A DNA stretch of 64,000 bases from Bacilli bacterium (GTDB taxonomy: Bacteria > Bacillota_I > Bacilli_A > RF39 > UBA660). Numbering within the stretch: the first letter of the stretch is position 1; each line of letters starts with the position of its first letter. Made by a program: the position numbers and the translations under genes. Shown piece after piece: positions 1,221 to 59,868 of the stretch. The stretch covers positions 80,520 to 144,519 of the forward strand of contig JAFRHI010000023.1 in assembly GCA_017433415.1 (NCBI GenBank), written 5' to 3'. The notes below the pieces were generated by a model. It did not search any database, had not been told where the DNA came from, and was given only the letters and a program-made list of their open reading frames with translations.

Positions 1221-1297
1221 GGGCGATTAGCTCAGTTGGTTAGAGCACCTGCCTTACAAGCAGGGGGTCACAGGTTCGAGTCCTATATCGCCCACCA
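1221..1297 (+). tRNA. tRNA-Val (anticodon UAC)
   Basis: Cloverleaf GGGCGAT/ATCGCCC acceptor, anticodon loop CTTACAA, TPsiC GGTTCGAGTCC, encoded CCA. Confidence 0.9.
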
Positions 1298-1300
1298 GAT

Positions 1301-1376
<76 letters not shown>

Positions 1377-1383
1377 TTTTTTT

Positions 1384-1468
1384 GGAGAGGTAGCGAAGAG
1401 GCTAAACGCGACAGACTGTAAATCTGTTCTCATCGAGTTCGATGGTTCGAATCCATCTCTCTCCACCA
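1384..1468 (+). tRNA. tRNA-Tyr (anticodon GUA), long variable arm
   Basis: Acceptor GGAGAGG/TCTCTCC, anticodon loop CTGTAAA, long extra arm (TCTCATCGAGTTC), encoded CCA. Confidence 0.9.
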
Positions 1469-1478
1469 CTTTTGATTT

Positions 1479-1553
1479 TGCCTCGTAGCCAAGTGGTAAG
1501 GCATCAGACTTTGACTCTGACATGCGTTAGTTCGAATCTAACCGAGGCAGCCA
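1479..1553 (+). tRNA. tRNA-Gln (anticodon UUG)
   Basis: U1:A72 acceptor TGCCTCG/CGAGGCA with G73, anticodon loop CTTTGAC, encoded CCA. Confidence 0.88.
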
Positions 1554-1563
1554 ATTAAGAATT

Positions 1564-1639
1564 GATCTGTTAGCTCAGTAGGTAGAGCATTTGACTTTTA
1601 ATCAAAGGGTCATGAGTTCGAATCTCATACAGGTCACCA
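1564..1639 (+). tRNA. tRNA-Lys (anticodon UUU)
   Basis: Acceptor GATCTGT/ACAGGTC, anticodon loop CTTTTAA, encoded CCA. Confidence 0.9.
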
Positions 1640-1646
1640 TTTATGT

Positions 1647-1735
1647 GCCTGAGTGGCGGAATTGGTAGACGCACAGGACTTAAAATCCTGCGAGAATCAA
1701 CCCTCGTGCCGGTTCAAGTCCGGCCTTAGGCACCA
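1647..1735 (+). tRNA. tRNA-Leu (anticodon UAA), long variable arm
   Basis: Acceptor GCCTGAG/CTTAGGC, anticodon loop CTTAAAA, long extra arm, encoded CCA. Confidence 0.9.
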
Positions 1736-1772
1736 TCAAAAATTTACTCACTTTATTAAAAAGTGAGTTCAC

Positions 1773-1865
1773 GGAGGAATACCCAAGTCTGGTTGAAGGG
1801 ACCGGTCTTGAAAACCGGGAGGTCGTGCAAGCGGCGCAGGGGTTCGAATCCCTTTTCCTCCGCCA
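1773..1865 (+). tRNA. tRNA-Ser (anticodon UGA), long variable arm
   Basis: Acceptor GGAGGAA/TTCCTCC with G73, anticodon loop CTTGAAA, long extra arm, encoded CCA. Confidence 0.9.
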
Positions 1866-1872
1866 TTTACAT

Positions 1873-1949
1873 CGCGGGATGGAGCAGTTTGGTAGCTCGT
1901 TGGGCTCATAACCCGAAGGTCAGAGGTTCGAATCCTCTTCCCGCAACCA
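1873..1949 (+). tRNA. Initiator tRNA-fMet (anticodon CAU)
   Basis: C1 is unpaired with A72 (CGCGGGA...TCCCGCA). Three consecutive G-C pairs close the anticodon stem (GGG/CCC) around loop CTCATAA. Both are initiator hallmarks. CCA is encoded. Confidence 0.88.
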
Positions 1950-1951
1950 TT

Positions 1952-2028
1952 GGTTCCTTGGTGCAGCTGGTTAACACGTCTGCCTGTCACGCAGAAGATC
2001 GCGGGTTCGAGTCCCGTAGGAACCGCCA
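1952..2028 (+). tRNA. tRNA-Asp (anticodon GUC)
   Basis: Acceptor GGTTCCT/AGGAACC with G73, anticodon loop CTGTCAC, encoded CCA. Confidence 0.9.
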
Positions 2029-2031
2029 TTT

Positions 2032-2107
2032 GGCTTCATAGCTCAGTCGGTAGAGCAAGGGACTGAAAATCCCTGTGTCGCTGGTTCGATTCCCGCTGGA
2101 GCCACCA
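2032..2107 (+). tRNA. tRNA-Phe (anticodon GAA)
   Basis: Acceptor GGCTTCA/TGGAGCC with A73, anticodon loop CTGAAAA, encoded CCA. A73 matches the UGGU bulge of the pheST T-box at 34328-34331. Confidence 0.9.
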
Positions 2108-2150
2108 TTTTTATTGATAAACAATTATGTGTAGCTGAACAACATGACTT

Positions 2151-2227
2151 GCGCTCGTAGCTCAGTTGGATAGAGTGTTTGGCTACGAACCAAAAGGTCA
2201 GGGGTTCGAATCCCTTCGAGCGCACCA
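2151..2227 (+). tRNA. tRNA-Arg (anticodon ACG)
   Basis: Acceptor GCGCTCG/CGAGCGC, anticodon loop CTACGAA, encoded CCA. Confidence 0.9.
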
Positions 2228-2232
2228 TAGAT

Positions 2233-2309
2233 CGGGAAGTGGCTCAACTTGGTAGAGCATTTGGTTTGGGACCAAGGGGTTGCAGGTTCAAATCCTGTCT
2301 TCCCGACCA
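2233..2309 (+). tRNA. tRNA-Pro (anticodon UGG)
   Basis: Acceptor CGGGAAG/CTTCCCG, anticodon loop TTTGGGA, encoded CCA. Confidence 0.88.
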
Positions 2310-17117: not shown

Positions 17118-18956
17118 ATGAAAAGTGGTGGAAAAACAGTAAATTTTTGGATTTTATTGTTGTTTTCTGCTGCTTTTTTAATTTTATTATTAGTTAAAAA
17201 TAATAGTTATGCAAATCCTTTAGATAATGATGTTGAAGTTGAGTTGAATTCTGAACTTATCTATTATTTAAATGTGCAATATGATGGAATAGATAAAAAT
17301 GGTATTAAATCTAACGATTCTACTATAGCTCAGATTAATAGTGACATATTATTTGTAGAAGATAAGTTACCCGAGGGATTGGAATTTGAAGGATTTATTG
17401 CTACTGGTAATGGATCGATTGGAGCAGTTAAAAGAAGTGATAATTCTGTGTGCGTTGGTAAGGTAATTGATGATACTAATGAAGAAAGTATTAATACTGG
17501 TCGTTGGAATAGTGATCATACTGAGTATACATATCATGGACTTCATTATAATTTAAGTAATAGAACTGTAACTTTTAAGGTTGAAAATTTAATGGCAGGA
17601 TGTTATTTAACTGTTGGGATTAAGACAAAGACACCTTCAACAGTTGATGATCCAATAACCCCAGAGTTAGAAAAGAGAAGAGATTTTTATAATTTTGCAA
17701 CTTCTAGGGAGAGAGGATTAACTGTAAATTCTAATACAGTTCATGCTTTTATGGGAAGTGATGATATTGCTCTATATAGTGTTAAATATGAATATAGTGG
17801 TATTGTTCCTAGTAATGCTCCAAGTTTACCACAAGAAATGAATTATGCAGCTAATTCTATCGTTAATGTGGCAGCTAATGTAGAAGTAGAGGGATACACT
17901 TTTAGTGGATGGAGTACTAGTGATGTTAGTGTTAATAATAATTCATTTAAGATGCCAGAAACTAATGTTACTCTAAGAGGTTCATTTACAAGAAAAAATA
18001 CTAATAAAGTTAGTTATTTGGTAGAAGGAGTAACACCTGGTGATTATGTAATTCCGCTTGAGAAAAATTATTATCCTGGAAGTGTAGTTTCAGTAGATAT
18101 CTTAAAAGAAGGTGACGTGTTTAATGGATATAGATTCTTAGGATGGAATGCTACTGATGTAGAAGTTAGTGAAGATTTAGATTTTGTAATGCCTGATCAT
18201 GATGTTTCTTTTACTGGTAGATTTGAAGAAGTAAAATATAAAGTTACATATCAATTCTACGATGGAGTATTACCACCAAATTCTGATAGTTATTTACCTG
18301 ATACTAAAGATTATTCTCCAGGAGAGAAAGTTACACTTGAAAGTGTTAAGAGTGAACCAGATGGTTATAGTTTCTTAGGTTGGTATAAAGAAAAAGAATT
18401 TGAAATGCCTAATTCTGATGTTACAATTTACGGAGAATGGAAATTAAAATCTGGAGAGTTTAGACCAGAGATAAAAATAGAGATAATTGATCCTAAAAAG
18501 TCATATAAAGAAGGAGATACAGTAGAATTTAGGATTATTATTAAAAATACTGAAAATTATCCAATTAAAGATGTAATAGTTAAGGAACTTAATGACGGAG
18601 TAATATTTACTGATGGCAAAGGATATGAAGTTGTATCAGATCATATAGTAAATATCGATAGATTAGATCCAAATGAAAGTATCGAATTATATTCAAATTA
18701 TAAAGTTACTAATGAAAAAGATGGAGTAATTGAGAATAAAGTTGAAATTAAAGGAGCTCTAGCTGATAATAATTATGAAATGGCTAAGGGAGATTATAGT
18801 GATAGTATAGAATTTAAAATTAAACAAGATTTAATAGTTCCTGCTGATAATACGGGAATAAGAAAGTATTTAGTACCATTAGTTTTAGCTATCATCTTAA
18901 TTGTTTCAGGTATGAGTTTAGTACTTATTACAAAACAGAAAAAAGAAAAGGTATAA
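17118..18956 (+). CDS. Secreted surface protein with four Listeria-Bacteroides repeats, a DUF11-type repeat domain and a C-terminal sorting-signal-like tail
   Basis: Signal peptide ending in 'SYA'. Repeats include 'GYTFSGWS...MPETNVTLRGSF', 'GYRFLGWN...MPDHDVSFTGRF' and 'GYSFLGWY...MPNSDVTIYGEW'. 'EGDTVEFRIIIKNTENYPIKDVIVKE' is DUF11-like. The tail is 'PADNTG' + hydrophobic stretch + 'KQKKEKV'. Confidence 0.7.
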   Translation: MKSGGKTVNFWILLLFSAAFLILLLVKNNSYANPLDNDVEVELNSELIYYLNVQYDGIDKNGIKSNDSTIAQINSDILFVEDKLPEGLEFEGFIATGNGSIGAVKRSDNSVCVGKVIDDTNEESINTGRWNSDHTEYTYHGLHYNLSNRTVTFKVENLMAGCYLTVGIKTKTPSTVDDPITPELEKRRDFYNFATSRERGLTVNSNTVHAFMGSDDIALYSVKYEYSGIVPSNAPSLPQEMNYAANSIVNVAANVEVEGYTFSGWSTSDVSVNNNSFKMPETNVTLRGSFTRKNTNKVSYLVEGVTPGDYVIPLEKNYYPGSVVSVDILKEGDVFNGYRFLGWNATDVEVSEDLDFVMPDHDVSFTGRFEEVKYKVTYQFYDGVLPPNSDSYLPDTKDYSPGEKVTLESVKSEPDGYSFLGWYKEKEFEMPNSDVTIYGEWKLKSGEFRPEIKIEIIDPKKSYKEGDTVEFRIIIKNTENYPIKDVIVKELNDGVIFTDGKGYEVVSDHIVNIDRLDPNESIELYSNYKVTNEKDGVIENKVEIKGALADNNYEMAKGDYSDSIEFKIKQDLIVPADNTGIRKYLVPLVLAIILIVSGMSLVLITKQKKEKV

Positions 18957-18971
18957 TTTCCTTTTCTTTTT
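18944..18971 (+). terminator. Rho-independent terminator overlapping the end of the surface-protein gene
   Basis: AGAAAAGG-TATAATTT-CCTTTTCT followed by TTTT. An extended -10 TGATATAAT for the next gene follows at 18977-18985. Confidence 0.6.
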
Positions 18972-19006
18972 ATTCGTGATATAATTTACTAGAGTATGGT
19001 GGTAGT

Positions 19007-20734
19007 ATGAAAGAGTTTATTAAGAATATTAAATTTGCTTGGTATTATGCTAAGAGTGAAAAGAATAAGATTATTGGATTTATTATTTGTAATTTTATTC
19101 AGTTGTTTATTGGTGTAGTAGTACCTATTATTAGTGCTAGAATAATTGTTAATTTAACTGATAATAATATTAAGCAAGTAGTATTTATGGCTTTTGTACT
19201 ATTCTTAGTAGAAAGTTTACGTAATACGATATTTATGCTTGTTAGATTTTTTGCTCAAAGAACTTATCGTGAAACTTTTACTAAGTTACAATTAGATTTA
19301 GGTAAATCTATTTTAAAATTAAAAAATTCTTGTATTGATGAAAACTCTTCAGGGGTATTTATACAAAGACTTACTAATGATACTTCAAAGATTGCGGATG
19401 TTTTTAATTTAATTAATTTTAGATTTACAGATATTCTTACTAATATTGGTATATTTTGTGCCGTATTAATTATTGATTATAGAGTTTTTATTTATTTACT
19501 TTTATGGGTTGTTATAATTGGTGTTATTGAGAGAAGAAGAGTTTCTCTTCGTAATGAAAAAGATAAAGAATTTAGAAAAGAAAATGAAAATGTATCTGGT
19601 TTTGTTGGAGAATTAGTTCGTGGTGTTCGTGATATTAAGATGCTTAGTGCAGAAAAAAGTTTTTTAAAAGAGCTACATACTAAACTAATTCATCTTAATG
19701 GTACTAGATATGAAATGACTAAAGTAGATAGAGAATATAGTTTTTTTGCAGGATTTTTAAGAGATTTTTTAGACTTCAGTATGATTTGTTTATTAGTTTA
19801 TTTAATATACGTTGGACAAATGACTATTGCAGTTGCTTTGGTTGTTCATAATTATATGTCCCATGTAATGTATATTGTTAATAGTTATAGTACTTTATTA
19901 GAAGGTATAAAAGATTTTAACTTATCAACAAATAGAATATATGCAATTATTAATAGTCGTGAGTTTCCTAAAGAAAAGTTTGGTAAGAGACATTTAGAGA
20001 ATGTTAAAGGTAATTTTGAATTTAAAGATGTTGAATTTTCTTATAATGATAAAGATATTATTCTAAAAGATTTATCTTTTAAAGTTAAAAATGGATCGAC
20101 TGTTGCTTTTGTGGGGGCTAGTGGAGCTGGTAAAACGACAATATTTAATCTTTTATGTTTAATGTATGATAATTATAAAGGATTGATATCAATTGATGGA
20201 GAAGATATAAGAGAATTAGATAAAGAATCAATTCGTGATAATATTACAGTTATTAGTCAAAATCCGTATATTTTTAATTTAAGTATTCGTGATAATTTAC
20301 GTTTAGTTAAAGACGATTTAACTGAAGAAGAGATGATTGAAGCTTGCCGTGCAGCTTGCTTGGAAGAGTTTATTATGGCTTTGCCTGATAGGTATGATAC
20401 GATTGTAGGAGAAGGTGGAGTTACTCTAAGTGGTGGACAAAGACAGAGATTAGCGATTGCTAGAGCACTAGTACAAAATACTAAAATAATTCTTTTTGAT
20501 GAAGCAACAAGTGCTCTTGATAATATTACACAGACTAAGATTGCTGAAGCTATTGAAAATTTACAAGGTAATTATACAGTTTTAATTATTGCCCATCGTC
20601 TTAGTACGATAGTTAATAGTGATAGAATACTTTTCTTAAAAGATGGTAAGATTGAAACTGAAGGTACTCATGATGAATTATTAAATAATTGTTTAGAATA
20701 CAAAGAATTGTACGATGCAGAAATAGAAAAATAA
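19007..20734 (+). CDS. ABC exporter, fused permease/ATPase (MsbA/type I exporter family), no peptidase C39 domain
   Basis: Six predicted TM helices precede the ATPase. Walker A 'GASGAGKTT', signature 'LSGGQRQR', Walker B 'ILFDEATSALD', H-loop 'IIAHRL'. Confidence 0.85.
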   Translation: MKEFIKNIKFAWYYAKSEKNKIIGFIICNFIQLFIGVVVPIISARIIVNLTDNNIKQVVFMAFVLFLVESLRNTIFMLVRFFAQRTYRETFTKLQLDLGKSILKLKNSCIDENSSGVFIQRLTNDTSKIADVFNLINFRFTDILTNIGIFCAVLIIDYRVFIYLLLWVVIIGVIERRRVSLRNEKDKEFRKENENVSGFVGELVRGVRDIKMLSAEKSFLKELHTKLIHLNGTRYEMTKVDREYSFFAGFLRDFLDFSMICLLVYLIYVGQMTIAVALVVHNYMSHVMYIVNSYSTLLEGIKDFNLSTNRIYAIINSREFPKEKFGKRHLENVKGNFEFKDVEFSYNDKDIILKDLSFKVKNGSTVAFVGASGAGKTTIFNLLCLMYDNYKGLISIDGEDIRELDKESIRDNITVISQNPYIFNLSIRDNLRLVKDDLTEEEMIEACRAACLEEFIMALPDRYDTIVGEGGVTLSGGQRQRLAIARALVQNTKIILFDEATSALDNITQTKIAEAIENLQGNYTVLIIAHRLSTIVNSDRILFLKDGKIETEGTHDELLNNCLEYKELYDAEIEK

Positions 20735-20762
20735 CAAGTTCTAGACTTGTTATTTTTTTTTT
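20733..20762 (+). terminator. Rho-independent terminator after the ABC exporter
   Basis: AACAAGT-TCTAG-ACTTGTT then A + T10. The -10 TGTTATAAT of the next gene (20762-20770) abuts it. Confidence 0.8.
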
Positions 20763-20794
20763 GTTATAATAAATGGCACTTGGGGGAAAGTAAG

Positions 20795-21562
20795 ATGGAT
20801 AAACTTGATGTTAAAAATTTATATTTAGAAGTAACAAGAGATTGTACCCTTGAATGTATTCATTGTTATAGAGGAGAGAAGGAAGATAAGTATTTATCTT
20901 TTGATGTTATTGATAAAGTGTTTAGTGGCGTAGAAAAGATTCATAAACTTTTAATAACTGGAGGAGAACCTTTTTTAGCTTTAGAACAGTTAAAGAGAAT
21001 AGCTTATAATATTCAAAAAAATGCTATTAAAATAGATAGGATTACAATAGTTACTAATGGAACAATACTTTCAAAAGAGATAATTGATTTAATTGTATAT
21101 TTTTCTAATATTTCTTATCTAGAATTGGATATATCTAGTGATAAATTTCATGAAATTGAATTAGAAAGATTAGGTCTTTTAGAAAGAAAACAGAAAAATG
21201 TTGCAAGGCTTAATGAATTATTTTCTGTTGAAGAGTTGATTCCTACAAGATATCCTAAGGTTATTCATAAATTGGGGAGAGCTATTAATCTTACAACTGA
21301 AGATCTTCATTATATTAATAATCTTGGTGACGTTCAAACAAAATATGTTTTATCTTTTGATGAAGAATTAGAAAAGATGCGTGCTAAATATAGAGAATTA
21401 AGTTTTGATGGTTCTTTTATAGATGGTTATTTATATATCGATGTTAATGGTAATATTGTTCCAGCTTATGCTTCTTTTAAGGAAGAAGATGAAAATGTAT
21501 ATAGTAGTTTAGAAGGAAAAACTTTAGTAAAAGCTATTAGAGATATTAAGATTAGTAATTAA
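20795..21562 (+). CDS. Small radical SAM enzyme (255 aa) lacking SPASM/twitch cysteines
   Basis: CX3CX2C in 'TRDCTLECIHCY' and the SAM-binding 'LLITGGEPFL'. The C-terminus 'YLYIDVNGNIVPAYASF' looks like the start of a SPASM region, but no Cys residues remain. The ATG at 20795 follows GGGGGAAAG. Confidence 0.7.
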   Translation: MDKLDVKNLYLEVTRDCTLECIHCYRGEKEDKYLSFDVIDKVFSGVEKIHKLLITGGEPFLALEQLKRIAYNIQKNAIKIDRITIVTNGTILSKEIIDLIVYFSNISYLELDISSDKFHEIELERLGLLERKQKNVARLNELFSVEELIPTRYPKVIHKLGRAINLTTEDLHYINNLGDVQTKYVLSFDEELEKMRAKYRELSFDGSFIDGYLYIDVNGNIVPAYASFKEEDENVYSSLEGKTLVKAIRDIKISN

Positions 21563-21662
21563 AAACTTAAGTAAAAAATATTTTTCTTCGTATATTTTAA
21601 ATGGAACATTTAGTTGTTGGGTGTCTACCTTCTTATCTTCTAGAAGAAAGGAGGTTGATAAA

Positions 21663-21755
21663 ATGAAAACTAAAACTTTTATTGTAAAAGTTTTAAGATT
21701 TATTTCTATCATTTTATTCCTTTTAATCATTTTGATTATAGTAATAAAAAAATGA
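21663..21755 (+). CDS. Unannotated 30-aa hydrophobic peptide MKTKTFIVKVLRFISIILFLLIILIIVIKK (type I toxin-like)
   Basis: AAGGAGG (21648-21654) lies 8 nt before the ATG. The peptide has a single TM-length hydrophobic core flanked by Lys and ends in TGA. A paralogue sits in the next module. It is below the 60-aa cutoff of the ORF track. Confidence 0.6.
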   Translation: MKTKTFIVKVLRFISIILFLLIILIIVIKK

Positions 21756-21827
21756 CACTTAAGTCTATGACTTAAATGTCTACCACATTTTTAAGGTAGG
21801 CATTCAGCGTAAAAAACTGAATGTTCC
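21744..21827 (-). ncRNA. Predicted antisense (antitoxin-like) sRNA of module 1
   Basis: On the minus strand, TAAAAT (21839-21834) inside the conserved 3' block is a possible -10. The minus-strand intrinsic terminator GACATTTAAGTC-ATA-GACTTAAGTGTC + ATTTTTTTATT (21780-21744) overlaps the peptide's last codons. The end points are predictions only. Confidence 0.35.
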
Positions 21828-22015
21828 CTTTTAATTTTATGCAAGATGTCTTGCTAAATACATAGTAGCATATTTTAATATTCTTGTAAATTATTATTGA
21901 TATTTATTATAGATTAAAAATTTAAGTGAAAAAATATTTTTTTCGTATATTTTAAATGGAACATTTGATATGAGTGTCATCCTCTAATCTTTTTAAAGAA
22001 AGGAGGTAGATGATA

Positions 22016-22108
22016 ATGGAGACTAAAGCTTTTATTTTGGAAGTTTTAAAATTTCTTTCTATAATTTTATTACTTTCTACCTTACTGGTATTAGTCATAA
22101 AAAAATAG
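22016..22108 (+). CDS. Unannotated 30-aa hydrophobic peptide METKAFILEVLKFLSIILLLSTLLVLVIKK (type I toxin-like paralogue)
   Basis: AGGAGG (22001-22006) lies 9 nt before the ATG. It has the same length and the same K-x-F-I...VIKK frame as the module 1 peptide, and ends in TAG. Confidence 0.6.
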   Translation: METKAFILEVLKFLSIILLLSTLLVLVIKK

Positions 22109-22179
22109 ACACTCATTTGCATAGATAGAGTGTCATACCTAATATAGAGGAGACATTTATGCAGACTCAAATGTTCCTC
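22097..22179 (-). ncRNA. Predicted antisense (antitoxin-like) sRNA of module 2
   Basis: Minus-strand TAAAAT (22191-22186) is a possible -10. The minus-strand terminator is GACACTC-13 nt-GAGTGTC + TATTTTTTTAT (22134-22097). The end points are predictions only. Confidence 0.35.
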
Positions 22180-22262
22180 TTTTTAATTTTATGCAAGAGG
22201 TCTTGCTAAATACATAGTAGCATAAAAGTAGTTTGTTGTCAAAATACACTCTCTAAAAACAA

Positions 22263-22291
22263 TTGACATTTATTTGGAAAAGATATATATT
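22263..22291 (+). promoter_or_regulatory. Sigma-A promoter of the glyQS leader
   Basis: TTGACA (22263-22268), a 17-nt spacer, then TATATT (22286-22291). Confidence 0.65.
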
Positions 22292-22297
22292 TATTAC

Positions 22298-22414
22298 ATA
22301 AGTGTGATGACGGGTGTGGAAAGCCAAGAGCAGTATATTAAGAGTTGATTCTTCTAGAATAAGTAAGGTGGAACCGCGGAGAAATTCGTCCTTACAAATT
22401 CTAGAAGTTTTTTT
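22298..22414 (+). promoter_or_regulatory. Compact T-box leader (glycine-type acceptor match) with terminator
   Basis: T-box sequence AAGTAAGGTGGAACCGCGG (22361-22379). The antiterminator is GTAAGG / bulge TGGAACC / GCGGA-GAAA-TTCGT / CCTTAC (22363-22395). The helix extension is TTCTAGAAT (22352-22360) / ATTCTAGAA (22398-22406), followed by T7 (22408-22414). The UGGA bulge fits a U73 tRNA-Gly. A TGTGATGA K-turn-like motif lies at 22303-22310. Confidence 0.7.
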
Positions 22415-22429
22415 GTTAAAGGAGGTATT

Positions 22430-22750
22430 ATGAAATTATTTATTAGTGGATATATTAATAATTTTCCTGAAAAATTTAATGATTTTGAACTTGCTGATAA
22501 TATTAGTGAAGCTAATATGGTATTAATATTACCTGGTGGAGTCGGGACGATGCATGACTTATTTAAATCTGTTAATGATGGTAAAAGAGTAATTGTTTAT
22601 AATAAGGATTTTTTCTATACTCCGATAATAAAGAAATTGTTTGAATTGTATGAAGAAGGAATTGAATTAAGACGTCCATCTGAATATATGGAGATAGAAA
22701 GTGAAATGGATGAAATAATTAAGAAATTGGAGGATAATAAATATGAGTAA
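22430..22750 (+). CDS. Small LOG/TIGR00725-like Rossmann-fold protein (truncated relative to LOG family)
   Basis: 106 aa. 'ANMVLILPGGVGTMHDLF' resembles the PGGxGTxxE motif of LOG / lysine-decarboxylase-like proteins. RBS AAAGGAGG. Its stop overlaps the glyQS start (ATATGAGTAA). Confidence 0.45.
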   Translation: MKLFISGYINNFPEKFNDFELADNISEANMVLILPGGVGTMHDLFKSVNDGKRVIVYNKDFFYTPIIKKLFELYEEGIELRRPSEYMEIESEMDEIIKKLEDNKYE

Positions 22751-24113
22751 TTTAACAATGGAAAAGTTAGTTAATTATTGCAAACAATATGGTTTTATAT
22801 TTCAAGGAAGTGAAATATATGGAGGACTTGCAAATACTTGGGATTATGGGCCATTAGGTAGTAGGTTAAAGAATAATATTAAGGATTCATGGAGAAAAAG
22901 ATTTATTCAAGAACGTCCTAATGCTTATGAAGTTGATGCGGCAATTTTGATGCATCCAAGAGTTTGGGAAGCAAGTGGTCATGTTGCTAGTTTTTCTGAT
23001 CCTTTAATAGATTGTAAGCATTGTAAATCTAGACAAAGAACAGATGAACTAATTGATGGATTTGATTCTAGTGCTCACGCTGATGGTATGAGTGAAGAAG
23101 AGATGATGTCATATATTAAGAAACATAAAGTACCATGTCCTAAATGTGGAAAAAGTGATTGGACTGATATTCGTCAATTTAAGCTTATGTTTGAGACTAA
23201 ACGAGGAGTAGTTGAAGATGGTAAAAATTTAGTTTATTTAAGACCAGAAAATGCCCAAGGAGAGTATGTTAATTTCTTAAATGTACAAAGAACTATGCGA
23301 GCAAAGCTTCCATTTAGTATTGGACAAATTGGTAAAGCTTTTAGAAATGAAATTACTCCAGGTAACTTTACTTTTAGAACTATTGAATTTGAACAAATGG
23401 AATATCAAACTTTCTGTAAGGAAGGAACTGATAGTGATTTATATAATTATTTTAAAGAATATGGTAAGAAGTATTATATGGATTTAGGTATTCCAGAAGA
23501 AAAATTAAGATTTCATGATCATGAAAAGTTAGCACATTATGCTAAAGAAGCTTGTGATATTGAATATAACTTTTGTTTCGGATGGGGAGAGATTAATGGT
23601 ACACATAATCGTACTAATTACGATCTTAGTCGTCATCAAGAATATTCTACTGTATCACAAGAATATTTAGATCCTGAAACTAATGAGAAATTTATTCCAT
23701 ATGTAATAGAATCTACTTATGGATGTGACAGAACAACACTTGCGGTACTAGATAATAGTTACTGTGAAGAACAATTAGAAAATGGTGAAACAAGAGAAGT
23801 TATGAAGTTTATTCCATATCTTGCACCATATAAAGTATGTGTACTTCCTCTTGCTAAAAAATATCATAGTGAAAAGGCAGTAGAAATATATAATGAATTA
23901 GCAAAGCACTTTATGACTAGTTACGATGAGACAGGTTCAATTGGAAAAAGATATAGAAGAAGTGATGCTATTGGTACTCCTTGGTGTATTACAGTGGATG
24001 ATGAAACTATTAATAAAGGAACTGTCACAGTAAGAGATAGAGATACTATGGAACAAATAACTTTAAAAGTAGATAAAGTTGTTGAGTATATAAACAAGAG
24101 AATTCAATTTTAG
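22743..24113 (+). CDS. glyQS: Glycine--tRNA ligase, homodimeric alpha2 type
   Basis: 456 aa. 'YGFIFQGSEIYGGLANTWDYGPLG', 'FRNEITPGNFTFRTIEFEQME', 'GCDRT' and 'SIGKRYRRSDAIGTPWCITVD' fit GlyRS. Confidence 0.92.
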   Translation: MSNLTMEKLVNYCKQYGFIFQGSEIYGGLANTWDYGPLGSRLKNNIKDSWRKRFIQERPNAYEVDAAILMHPRVWEASGHVASFSDPLIDCKHCKSRQRTDELIDGFDSSAHADGMSEEEMMSYIKKHKVPCPKCGKSDWTDIRQFKLMFETKRGVVEDGKNLVYLRPENAQGEYVNFLNVQRTMRAKLPFSIGQIGKAFRNEITPGNFTFRTIEFEQMEYQTFCKEGTDSDLYNYFKEYGKKYYMDLGIPEEKLRFHDHEKLAHYAKEACDIEYNFCFGWGEINGTHNRTNYDLSRHQEYSTVSQEYLDPETNEKFIPYVIESTYGCDRTTLAVLDNSYCEEQLENGETREVMKFIPYLAPYKVCVLPLAKKYHSEKAVEIYNELAKHFMTSYDETGSIGKRYRRSDAIGTPWCITVDDETINKGTVTVRDRDTMEQITLKVDKVVEYINKRIQF

Positions 24114-34148: not shown

Positions 34149-34369
34149 TATAATTTGTGTATCGACTGTGAAGAGGAGTAGTAATAAACTTAATTATTTT
34201 TAGAGAGATTGTGGTTGGTGGAAACAATTAATAATAGTTTATGAATTCGCCTGTGGAGTTCTTATTAATAGTAAGCGTATTTCTTGCGTTAAAAGATTTG
34301 AGTGTATAGTAAAGCTATGAAATAAGGTGGTACCGCGAGTAATTCGTCCTTATGAATAGCTTTTTTTTT
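34146..34369 (+). promoter_or_regulatory. Promoter plus Phe-specific T-box leader with terminator
   Basis: Extended -10 TGATATAAT (34146-34154). K-turn-like TGTGAAGA. AG bulge TAGAGAG (34201-34207). Distal loop GGTTGGTGGAAAC (34212-34224). Specifier region GAA-TTC-G (TTC at 34246-34248). T-box AATAAGGTGGTACCGCG (34321-34337) with a UGGU bulge matching A73 of tRNA-Phe. T9 at 34361-34369. Confidence 0.85.
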
Positions 34370-59751: not shown

Positions 59752-59868
59752 ATGAGTAATAAGAATTATAGAAATGTGGTTTTTATGATATTGTTGCTAT
59801 TCGTTTTAACAGCGGTTTGTATTTATGGAATATTCTATGATATTCCTCTTTATATGGATATGCCTTAA
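59752..59868 (+). CDS. Unannotated 38-aa single-TM peptide MSNKNYRNVVFMILLLFVLTAVCIYGIFYDIPLYMDMP
   Basis: AAGGAGGA (59739-59746) lies 5 nt before the ATG and directly after the upstream stop. It is followed by the terminator AAAAGAAGA-TTT-TCTTCTTTT (59867-59890). Confidence 0.5.
   Translation: MSNKNYRNVVFMILLLFVLTAVCIYGIFYDIPLYMDMP

Follow-up and report, generated by a model that had tools for sequence, protein, structure and literature searches.

What are the two adjacent units of approximately 310 bp which lie in tandem downstream of a radical SAM gene in the genome of an uncultured Bacilli bacterium (GTDB lineage RF39; UBA660), and which no annotation accounts for? The units, designated A (21561-21872) and B (21916-22224), were studied in a stretch of 64,000 nucleotides (nt) from contig JAFRHI010000023.1 of assembly GCA_017433415.1 (positions 80,520 to 144,519; the whole of this 64-kb stretch is called the window below), where they are placed between the end of the radical SAM gene (21562) and the glyQS T-box leader. 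An earlier reading of the letters alone (the sequence-only reading) had described them as modules which each encode a hydrophobic peptide resembling a type I toxin of no named family, and all of its features that can be tested computationally agree with that description. Toxin-antitoxin (TA) systems of type I are usually missed by annotation, and the known ones come mainly from cultured Proteobacteria, Bacillus, Staphylococcus, Enterococcus and Clostridioides. The comparative analysis reported here suggests that each unit is a type I TA-like module, in which the mRNA of a putative toxin and an antisense RNA would be transcribed convergently and overlap at their 3' ends; we put the probability of this reading at roughly 0.78. 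The chief addition to the sequence-only reading is the predicted antitoxin RNA, and neither the minus-strand promoter in the 3' block of each unit nor the complementarity of the 5' and 3' blocks had formed part of it. As judged from sequence comparison, the modules belong to a previously undescribed family of a known kind, which is common in uncultured gut Bacilli.

On alignment the two units were colinear, as had been proposed, with 84% identity over the alignment columns. The 25-nt block at the 5' end (TTCGTATATTTTAAATGGAACATTT) and a 38-nt block at the 3' end each occurred exactly twice in the window (0 expected from shuffles), and a search with nhmmer, using a profile built from 76 relatives, returned units A and B as the sole copies in the window. 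The near-identical ends and diverged interior which had been described earlier were confirmed segment by segment: identity between A and B was 96% in the promoter and 5' end and 95% in the 3' block, compared to 73% in the inner 5' untranslated region (UTR), 76% in the open reading frame (ORF) and 61% from the stop codon to the 3' strand of a long helix. The two end blocks were found to be complementary to each other (GGAACATT and AATGTTCC) and together form the base of this helix, one block on either side; the helix is designated P1.

A candidate antisense RNA was identified on the minus strand of both units (coordinates of all features are given in the table). The best minus-strand sites returned by a promoter scan of the region fell within the conserved 3' blocks, while the sole terminator-like site called by a terminator scan of the region was also on the minus strand, just past the stop codon of unit A, with a stem running from 21780 to 21754 followed by AUUUUUUUAU. 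The U-run of this terminator is complementary to AAA-AAA-TGA, with which the ORF ends (Lys-Lys-stop). The predicted antisense RNA covers the 3'UTR of the toxin mRNA together with the final codons (approximately three) of the ORF. Its complementarity to the mRNA is perfect over about 95 nt, which comprise the 3' strand of P1, the hairpin that follows the stop codon and these final codons. In the antisense RNA the structure of the middle and terminator stems is retained although their sequences are not the same in A and B, and the energy calculated for the duplex between antisense RNA and mRNA was -152.5 kcal/mol for the cognate pair of unit A and -155.2 kcal/mol for that of unit B, compared to -51 and -53 kcal/mol for the cross pairs.

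The signals which flank the antisense RNA are conserved across the family. An extended -10 element (TGnTAnnAT) was present at a constant position in 71 of 73 units, and a -35 element with at least four of six matches to TTGACA was found in 66 of 71 units (25 of them perfect), in an otherwise variable flank and at a spacing of exactly 17 nt. The terminator had a family mean of -13.9 kcal/mol with 8 U, and the hairpin after the stop codon which forms it was seen to covary (CG/UA at alignment pair 221-260). On the plus strand, a match to TATAAT at five or six of six positions was found 6-7 nt before GGAAC in 62 of the 73 units, while the -35 element was at chance level. The TTAAGT-TATATT promoter put forward in the sequence-only reading is upheld in its -10 half, which is near consensus, and not in its -35 half, which is weak and unconserved in the family. 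As the antisense promoter has both elements conserved while the -35 of the toxin promoter is at chance, the antisense promoter is the stronger of the two, as would be expected for an antitoxin. Each unit is therefore predicted to contain what characterises the type I class, namely a cis-antisense RNA gene which has its own promoter and terminator and is complementary to the toxin mRNA.

The predicted toxin mRNAs fold to -78 kcal/mol (z = -9.1) in unit A and -72.3 kcal/mol (z = -5.4) in unit B. Both structures are closed by P1, a helix of approximately 30 bp between the first 30 nt or so of the mRNA and its 3'UTR, in which the pairing sequences differ between A and B. This long-range helix was recovered by RNAalifold from a MAFFT alignment of 76 units. 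When the structure of unit A was placed on the alignment, 83.8% of cells were paired compared to about 45% when the partners were slid by 1-3 columns, a contrast between related sequences in which a structure derived from unit A is favoured over the slid controls; the observed values were attained by none of 500 shuffles. P1 was 92% paired over the 76 units and showed double-sided changes at alignment pairs 46-325, 47-324, 62-304 and 63-303 (for example AU/GC, GC/AU/UA and UA/GC/AU). Pairing of the inner 5'UTR with the 3'UTR was also stronger in cognate combinations (-22.3 kcal/mol) than in non-cognate ones (-19.0 kcal/mol; permutation z = -8.2).

Partition-function folding of 73 units was used to assess how accessible the Shine-Dalgarno (SD) sequence is. 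It was mostly paired in all modelled states, with its partner in the 5'UTR, and the probability of its being unpaired was 0.11 in the full mRNA, 0.05 when the antisense target was masked and 0.05 in an mRNA ending at the stop codon. Masking of the antisense target reduced SD accessibility from 0.10 to 0.01 in unit A, and reduced AUG accessibility from 0.49 to 0.15 in unit B. The structured mRNA with a sequestered SD and long-distance 5'-3' pairing which is typical of type I toxins was thus found in prediction. Direct action of the antitoxin in trans on the SD was also considered and was unsupported (duplex of -10.9 kcal/mol compared to -9.8 kcal/mol for shuffled RNA).

An SD sequence and a 30-codon ORF are present in each unit, as the sequence-only reading had stated; the SD is AGGAGG in both, with GGAGG 8 nt (A) and 9 nt (B) upstream of the ATG. 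Unit B has an additional ATG at 22010 which is just 3 nt from the SD, so that translation is likely to start at 22016. The predicted peptide has a basic N-terminus, a core of 16 uncharged residues (a hydrophobic core of about 17 residues) and two lysines at the C-terminus, and is of the single-pass membrane type. With 30 amino acids on a predicted mRNA of about 235 nt, it lies within the range expected of type I toxins (20-60 amino acids on an mRNA of 150-400 nt).

Coding constraint was examined in 54 distinct 30-codon sequences, which encode 45 distinct peptides. The entropy at codon positions 1, 2 and 3 was 0.61, 0.41 and 0.93, respectively, so that the third position was the most variable and the second the least. 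The ratio of non-synonymous to synonymous differences per site (pN/pS) was 0.45 in the ORF frame (median ratio of the substitution rates, dN/dS, 0.32), while values of 0.86 and 1.20 were obtained for the remaining two frames; the equal frequency of the two kinds of change which the sequence-only reading had named as evidence against itself was not seen at the level of the family. The basic N-terminus, hydrophobic core and terminal KK were retained in all 45 peptides (family consensus MK(K/T)(K/R)TFIIKVL(R/K)(L/Y)I(A/S)IILLLL(T/I)LLV(L/I)VIKK), the length was constant at 30 codons, and the SD scored 6/6 against the consensus at optimal spacing in most family units. Cysteine is absent from the window peptides and from most relatives, position 15 being cysteine in 5 of the 45 family peptides. 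At the level of the family, these patterns indicate that purifying selection acts on the ORF as a protein, i.e. that it encodes a translated and constrained peptide.

Other ORFs in the units were considered and rejected. Those on the minus strand (19-72 amino acids), which had already been dismissed as spurious, have neither start nor end conserved; two of them, of 68 and 72 amino acids (one of which is a gene call in locus L001), were rejected on length and ends. A public gene call of 62 amino acids in L001 (6730-6918, minus strand), which corresponds to approximately 21524-21712 (minus strand) of the window and lies antisense to unit A, is a spurious ORF produced by reverse-complemented hydrophobic-peptide codons. 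An ORF of 16 amino acids (MQTQMFLFLILCKRSC) starting at 22159 in the 3'UTR of unit B was rejected as an indel puts its equivalent in unit A out of frame.

Relatives of the units were sought with DNA patterns. A pattern from the 3' block identified at least 120 metagenome loci, mostly in samples from the human gut, from the rumen and from the gut of other animals. A pattern from the ORF identified four true loci in the genome collection (L004, L005, L007 and L008), of which L005 and L007 are labelled as Bacilli metagenome-assembled genomes (MAGs); a further match, L006 (Crocinitomicaceae), was due to chance and contains no unit. L004 has two tandem units, L007 has a second unit with a 25-amino-acid peptide and GGAUACA/UGUAUCC ends, and L008 is an orthologous locus with one B-type unit. 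Two tandem units were also found in L003, on the contig of the single protein-catalogue match (P0001), and one of these encodes a different peptide of 27 amino acids with compensated helix ends (GGAACACUUAAUU / AAUUAAGUGUUCC). The 107 full-length units yielded 76 unique units with an intact ORF, with 5'/3' duplexes of -19 to -47 kcal/mol. Three dissimilar-looking peptide types (30, 27 and 25 amino acids) are carried on one RNA scaffold. When the 30-mer was used as a phmmer query against 1.84 billion cluster representatives no match was obtained, and a query extended to 44 amino acids gave one match (P0001) among 5.8 billion clusters, which is owed to a spurious N-terminal extension. A viral contig scan and blastn searches of plasmid and phage collections were all without a match.

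Copy number and integrity vary across the family. Tandem copies were observed in approximately 15% of loci, and approximately 25% of copies are degenerate, being 5'-truncated, frameshifted or lacking the start codon. Among the decayed copies (for example L009, L014, L037, L028 and L077) are 5'-truncated ones with the antisense half only, some in which ATG has become ATA or ACG, and some with a frameshift; several of the truncated copies may be orphan antitoxins, given that they retain the antisense promoter and terminator. Variation was also seen at the locus itself: L008, in which the flanking genes share 92-96% protein identity with the window, has unit B only, while L043 has a single unit in which an A-type ORF is joined to a B-type downstream flank. 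These single-unit alleles suggest that the near-identical unit ends (95-96%) act as recombination substrates, which implies unequal recombination between the unit ends at this locus; the two-unit state is polymorphic. L008 (CAZVUP010000019.1) is labelled 'uncultured Muribaculaceae bacterium'; the orthologous contig is low in GC and has the T-box and glyS, and since the class-labelled carriers L005 and L007 are Bacilli MAGs, it is probably a mis-binned or mislabelled contig. In L003, the segments at 180-240 and 630-690, before each unit, look on the minus strand like the 3' half of a tRNA (GGACTCGAACC... and TGGTGCCTCAGGC...). ARAGORN identified no tRNA in these fragments, which may be integration-site remnants.

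No TA RNA family was matched in Rfam on either strand (at gathering thresholds and with E up to 10), and Pfam and NCBIfam (E up to 10) returned no toxin family, just generic transmembrane noise, in line with the earlier claim that the peptides belong to no named family. No papers were found when the literature was searched for the peptide strings and for TA systems of type I in Erysipelotrichaceae. In architecture, the closest systems are bsrG/SR4 and bsrE/SR5 of B. subtilis. In bsrG mRNA, nt 1-35 pair with nt 232-262 in a helix P1 from which stem-loops branch off, with the SD in a stem, as established by experimental probing, and SR4, an antisense RNA with several hairpins, extends SD sequestration by binding to the mRNA at its 3' end (PMC3834814); BsrE has 30 amino acids, is encoded on an mRNA of 255-260 nt and is weakly toxic (PMC6562991). 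The units resemble these systems in the small hydrophobic peptide (30 amino acids in BsrE and 38 in BsrG, on mRNAs of 255-296 nt), in the predicted P1 which joins the mRNA ends, in the SD held in a stem and in the convergent, 3'-overlapping, multi-hairpin antisense RNA with its terminator, while the small rise in SD/AUG occlusion modelled on antisense binding is like that of SR4 in kind. They differ in that the antisense RNA is approximately 110 nt rather than 163-183 nt, overlaps the last three or so codons alone and has a terminator U-tract which is the complement of Lys-Lys-stop; in addition, no separate plus-strand terminator stem-loop was detected past P1, the loci are without recognisable prophage context and the hosts are uncultured gut Bacilli. 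In the Rfam, Pfam and NCBIfam searches, neither peptide nor antitoxin RNA showed sequence or profile similarity to the TxpA/BsrG and BsrE/BsrH groups.

In Gram-positive type I families the antisense RNA as a rule lies towards the 3' side (PMC8594479). As in Fst/RNAII (par of pAD1) and SprA1/SprA1AS, convergent antisense RNA on the 3' side leaves most of the ORF uncovered, the peptides have approximately 30-33 amino acids and a single transmembrane segment, and structure at the 5' end of the mRNA would limit translation (PMC8594479). Functional pairing in those two systems occurs outside the overlap, at 5' repeats or in the SD region (PMC8594479), whereas the sole strong complementarity found here is the overlap of about 95 nt. 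Fst-type profile, Rfam and covariance-model searches gave no match for the units. Fst has a conserved proline and an acidic tail, and the window peptide appears to have neither. In the Gram-negative type I systems hok/Sok and aapA/IsoA the toxin mRNA is, as predicted here, locked by a long-distance interaction in which the 5' end pairs with the 3' end, and by SD/anti-SD sequestration (PMC8594479). In those systems the antisense RNA targets the 5'/ORF region and activation of the mRNA needs 3' trimming, whereas in the units the 3' strand of P1 would be the target; the units have neither a leader ORF nor sequence similarity to these systems.

On this basis the following mechanism is proposed. 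A plus-strand mRNA of approximately 235 nt, transcribed from a promoter in which the -10 is good and the -35 poor, would encode the 30-amino-acid single-pass membrane peptide. The first 30 nt or so would be held by the 3'UTR in P1 and the SD masked by an upstream anti-SD; translation would be intrinsically poor because of this sequestration. The minus-strand RNA of approximately 110 nt, with its three hairpins, would be made in excess from a much stronger promoter (near-consensus -35 and extended -10), would meet the mRNA through its hairpin loops and extend into a long duplex, and cleavage of this duplex by RNase III would keep toxin mRNA low. It would also displace the 5' strand of P1, with a modestly tighter occlusion of the SD or AUG. 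By analogy with the B. subtilis systems (PMC6562991), duplex-directed decay is the more likely main action of the antitoxin. It is rather doubtful that translation control through an allosteric three-strand switch, beyond RNase III decay, is the primary action. In such a switch the 3'UTR strand of P1 would bear a decoy that resembles the SD (AAGGUAGG in unit A and UAGAGGAG in unit B) holding the anti-SD region of the 5'UTR, and the antitoxin RNA, which mimics the 5' end of the mRNA, would capture the decoy and free the anti-SD to clamp the true SD or AUG. The C-terminal Lys-Lys codons may be constrained jointly by the peptide and by the U-tract of the antisense terminator, which would couple the evolution of toxin and antitoxin.

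The type I reading is well supported on its comparative side, by the anatomy of the units, coding constraint, covariation and the conservation of promoters and terminator; transcription of both RNAs, their exact ends, the role of RNase III, the toxicity of the peptide and its biological role are inferences. A number of observations weigh against it. The scan called no plus-strand intrinsic terminator in the region, which leaves it uncertain where the mRNA ends at its 3' side and how far exactly the overlap extends. Antisense binding is predicted to lower SD accessibility by a small amount (0.11 to 0.05), neither peptide nor RNA appears similar to any validated toxin or antitoxin family, and units A and B alone differ by 12 non-synonymous and 3 synonymous codons, coding constraint being evident at the family level only. 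The origin of the counted structure in unit A has been mentioned. The metagenome pattern moreover fixed a 3' motif, so that conservation of the 3' block and of its GGAACATT partner is partly by construction; for the terminal motif this circularity is answered by the units of L003 and L007, which were found without the 3' pattern and keep compensated ends (GGAACAC/GTGTTCC in L003, GGATACA/TGTATCC in L007).

The same anatomy could serve a non-toxic small membrane protein, such as a regulator or accessory subunit of a membrane complex, which is tuned by a cis-antisense RNA and is no addiction module. It speaks for antisense control, not for toxicity; BsrE, a relative by architecture, is just weakly toxic (PMC6562991), and purifying selection would suit any functional peptide. 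Among the neighbouring genes, which include those for a histidine kinase, CotJB, LeuRS, a symporter, an M23 peptidase and helicases, none is conserved that might encode a partner of such a protein; tandem copies, strain-level changes in copy number and decay of approximately 25% of copies are unusual for housekeeping small proteins, and three peptide types on one scaffold are a better fit to generic membrane damage than to a specific partner. With a strong antisense promoter set against a weak toxin promoter and a sequestered SD, the design is one for keeping expression off, and we regard the small-membrane-protein explanation as unlikely. It is very unlikely that the ORF is incidental and the unit a structured repeat without coding function or an intergenic mobile element, as might be suggested by an RNA scaffold better conserved than the peptide, by within-genome unit ends of 95-96% identity around diverged interiors and by the many truncated copies. 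This is contradicted by the variability of the third codon position and by a pN/pS clearly below 1 in the ORF frame, by the 6/6 SD in most units and by the fixed 30-codon length of 45 peptides; neither terminal inverted repeats nor target-site duplications were observed, and plasmid and phage collections gave no match.

A role as precursor of a ribosomally synthesised and post-translationally modified peptide (RiPP), or as a leaderless bacteriocin, is brought to mind by the genes directly upstream in the window, which encode a 575-amino-acid ABC exporter and a 255-amino-acid radical SAM protein with an N-terminus weakly similar to RiPP maturases (far below cut-offs). A homologue of the radical SAM gene was present in only 4 of 128 loci (808 kb), all of them orthologous (L001, L002, L008 and L043), while the other units lie between unrelated chromosomal genes; the sequence-only reading had named consistent location in RiPP clusters as the finding that would count against it, and this was not what was observed. 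The window peptides are without cysteine and without leader/core organisation, and each is predicted to have a separate promoter and to be countered by an antisense RNA; the radical SAM protein is of a generic kind, without a SPASM region and with every NCBIfam match far below cut-off, and the exporter is without a peptidase domain. The RiPP explanation is rejected, as adjacency to the radical SAM gene is confined to orthologous loci, and its probability is close to negligible.

Read as type I TA modules, the units would add an example which is both well defined and abundant (at least 120 loci) and comes from uncultured Bacilli of low GC content in gut and rumen, with a peptide essentially absent from protein catalogues. 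The type I concept itself would be unchanged. The 45 peptides and 76 RNA scaffolds offer a covariation data set for bsrG-like folding and for the divergence of antitoxin specificity between tandem copies, and a family model would allow annotators to mask the spurious antisense ORFs.

Table. Positions in the window of the features predicted for units A and B
Feature	Position	Strand	Details	Basis
Unit A toxin ORF	21663..21755	+	30 amino acids, MKTKTFIVKVLRFISIILFLLIILIIVIKK	Sequence, family coding signature
Unit B toxin ORF	22016..22108	+	30 amino acids, METKAFILEVLKFLSIILLLSTLLVLVIKK	Sequence, family coding signature
Unit A toxin promoter	21591..21596	+	-10 TATATT; weak -35 TTAAGT at 21567-21572	Sequence, family conservation of -10
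Unit B toxin promoter	21946..21951	+	-10 TATATT; weak -35 TTAAGT at 21922-21927	Sequence, family conservation of -10
Unit A predicted toxin mRNA	21603..21840	+	~238 nt	5' end placed from -10; 3' end placed at U-tract
Unit B predicted toxin mRNA	21958..22191	+	~234 nt; U-tract 22178-22191	Fold, family alignment
Unit A helix P1, 5' strand	21603..21631	+	Pairs with 3' strand 21793-21828; U-tract 21829-21840 after it	Fold, covariation
Unit B helix P1, 5' strand	21958-21986	+	Pairs with 3' strand 22145-22177; SD 22002-22006	Fold, covariation
Unit A anti-SD/SD pairing	21635..21655	+	Anti-SD AUCUUCU 21635-21641 with SD AGGAGGU 21649-21655	Minimum free energy structure
Unit A antisense promoter	21862..21890	-	-35 TTTACA 21890-21885, 17 nt, extended -10 TGcTACTAT 21870-21862	Promoter scan, family conservation
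Unit B antisense promoter	22214..22242	-	-35 TTGACA 22242-22237, 17 nt, extended -10 TGcTACTAT 22222-22214	Promoter scan, family conservation
Unit A predicted antisense RNA	21746..21855	-	~110 nt, three hairpins	Fold z = -4.9
Unit B predicted antisense RNA	22098..22207	-	~110 nt, three hairpins	Fold z = -3.9
Unit A antisense terminator	21754..21780	-	Hairpin; U-tract 21745-21753	Terminator scan, fold, family covariation
Unit B antisense terminator	22134-22108	-	Stem; U-tract 22107-22098	Rfam-search alignment, fold

The sole local match in Rfam at the locus was the sub-threshold glyQS T-box, a short leader at 22222-22396 (plus strand; 37 bits compared to a gathering threshold of 93) which retains the GGUGGAACCGCG motif and has a promoter, TTGACA-17-TATATT, at 22263-22291. 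It is followed by an ORF of 106 amino acids resembling LOG/lysine decarboxylase (22430-22750) and by glyS (22743-24113). On the other side of the units, the plus-strand gene run at 17118-21562 and upstream encodes a VWA-domain protein of 1027 amino acids and a Flg_new/SHIRT/DUF11 surface protein of 612 amino acids, then the exporter and the radical SAM protein described above; as judged from the loci compared, this run is unlinked to the toxin units outside the source species. Elsewhere in the window, a small-ORF scan identified an SD-preceded hydrophobic ORF of 38 amino acids at 59752-59868 (plus strand; MSNKNYRNVVFMILLLFVLTAVCIYGIFYDIPLYMDMP), unrelated in sequence to the units. An array of 13 tRNAs lies at 1221-2306 (plus strand) and a full-score T-box leader (121.7 bits) at 34159-34354 (plus strand). 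The window has a GC content of approximately 28% and a strongly positive GC skew, and the long ORFs in the 18-26 kb stretch are all on the plus strand.

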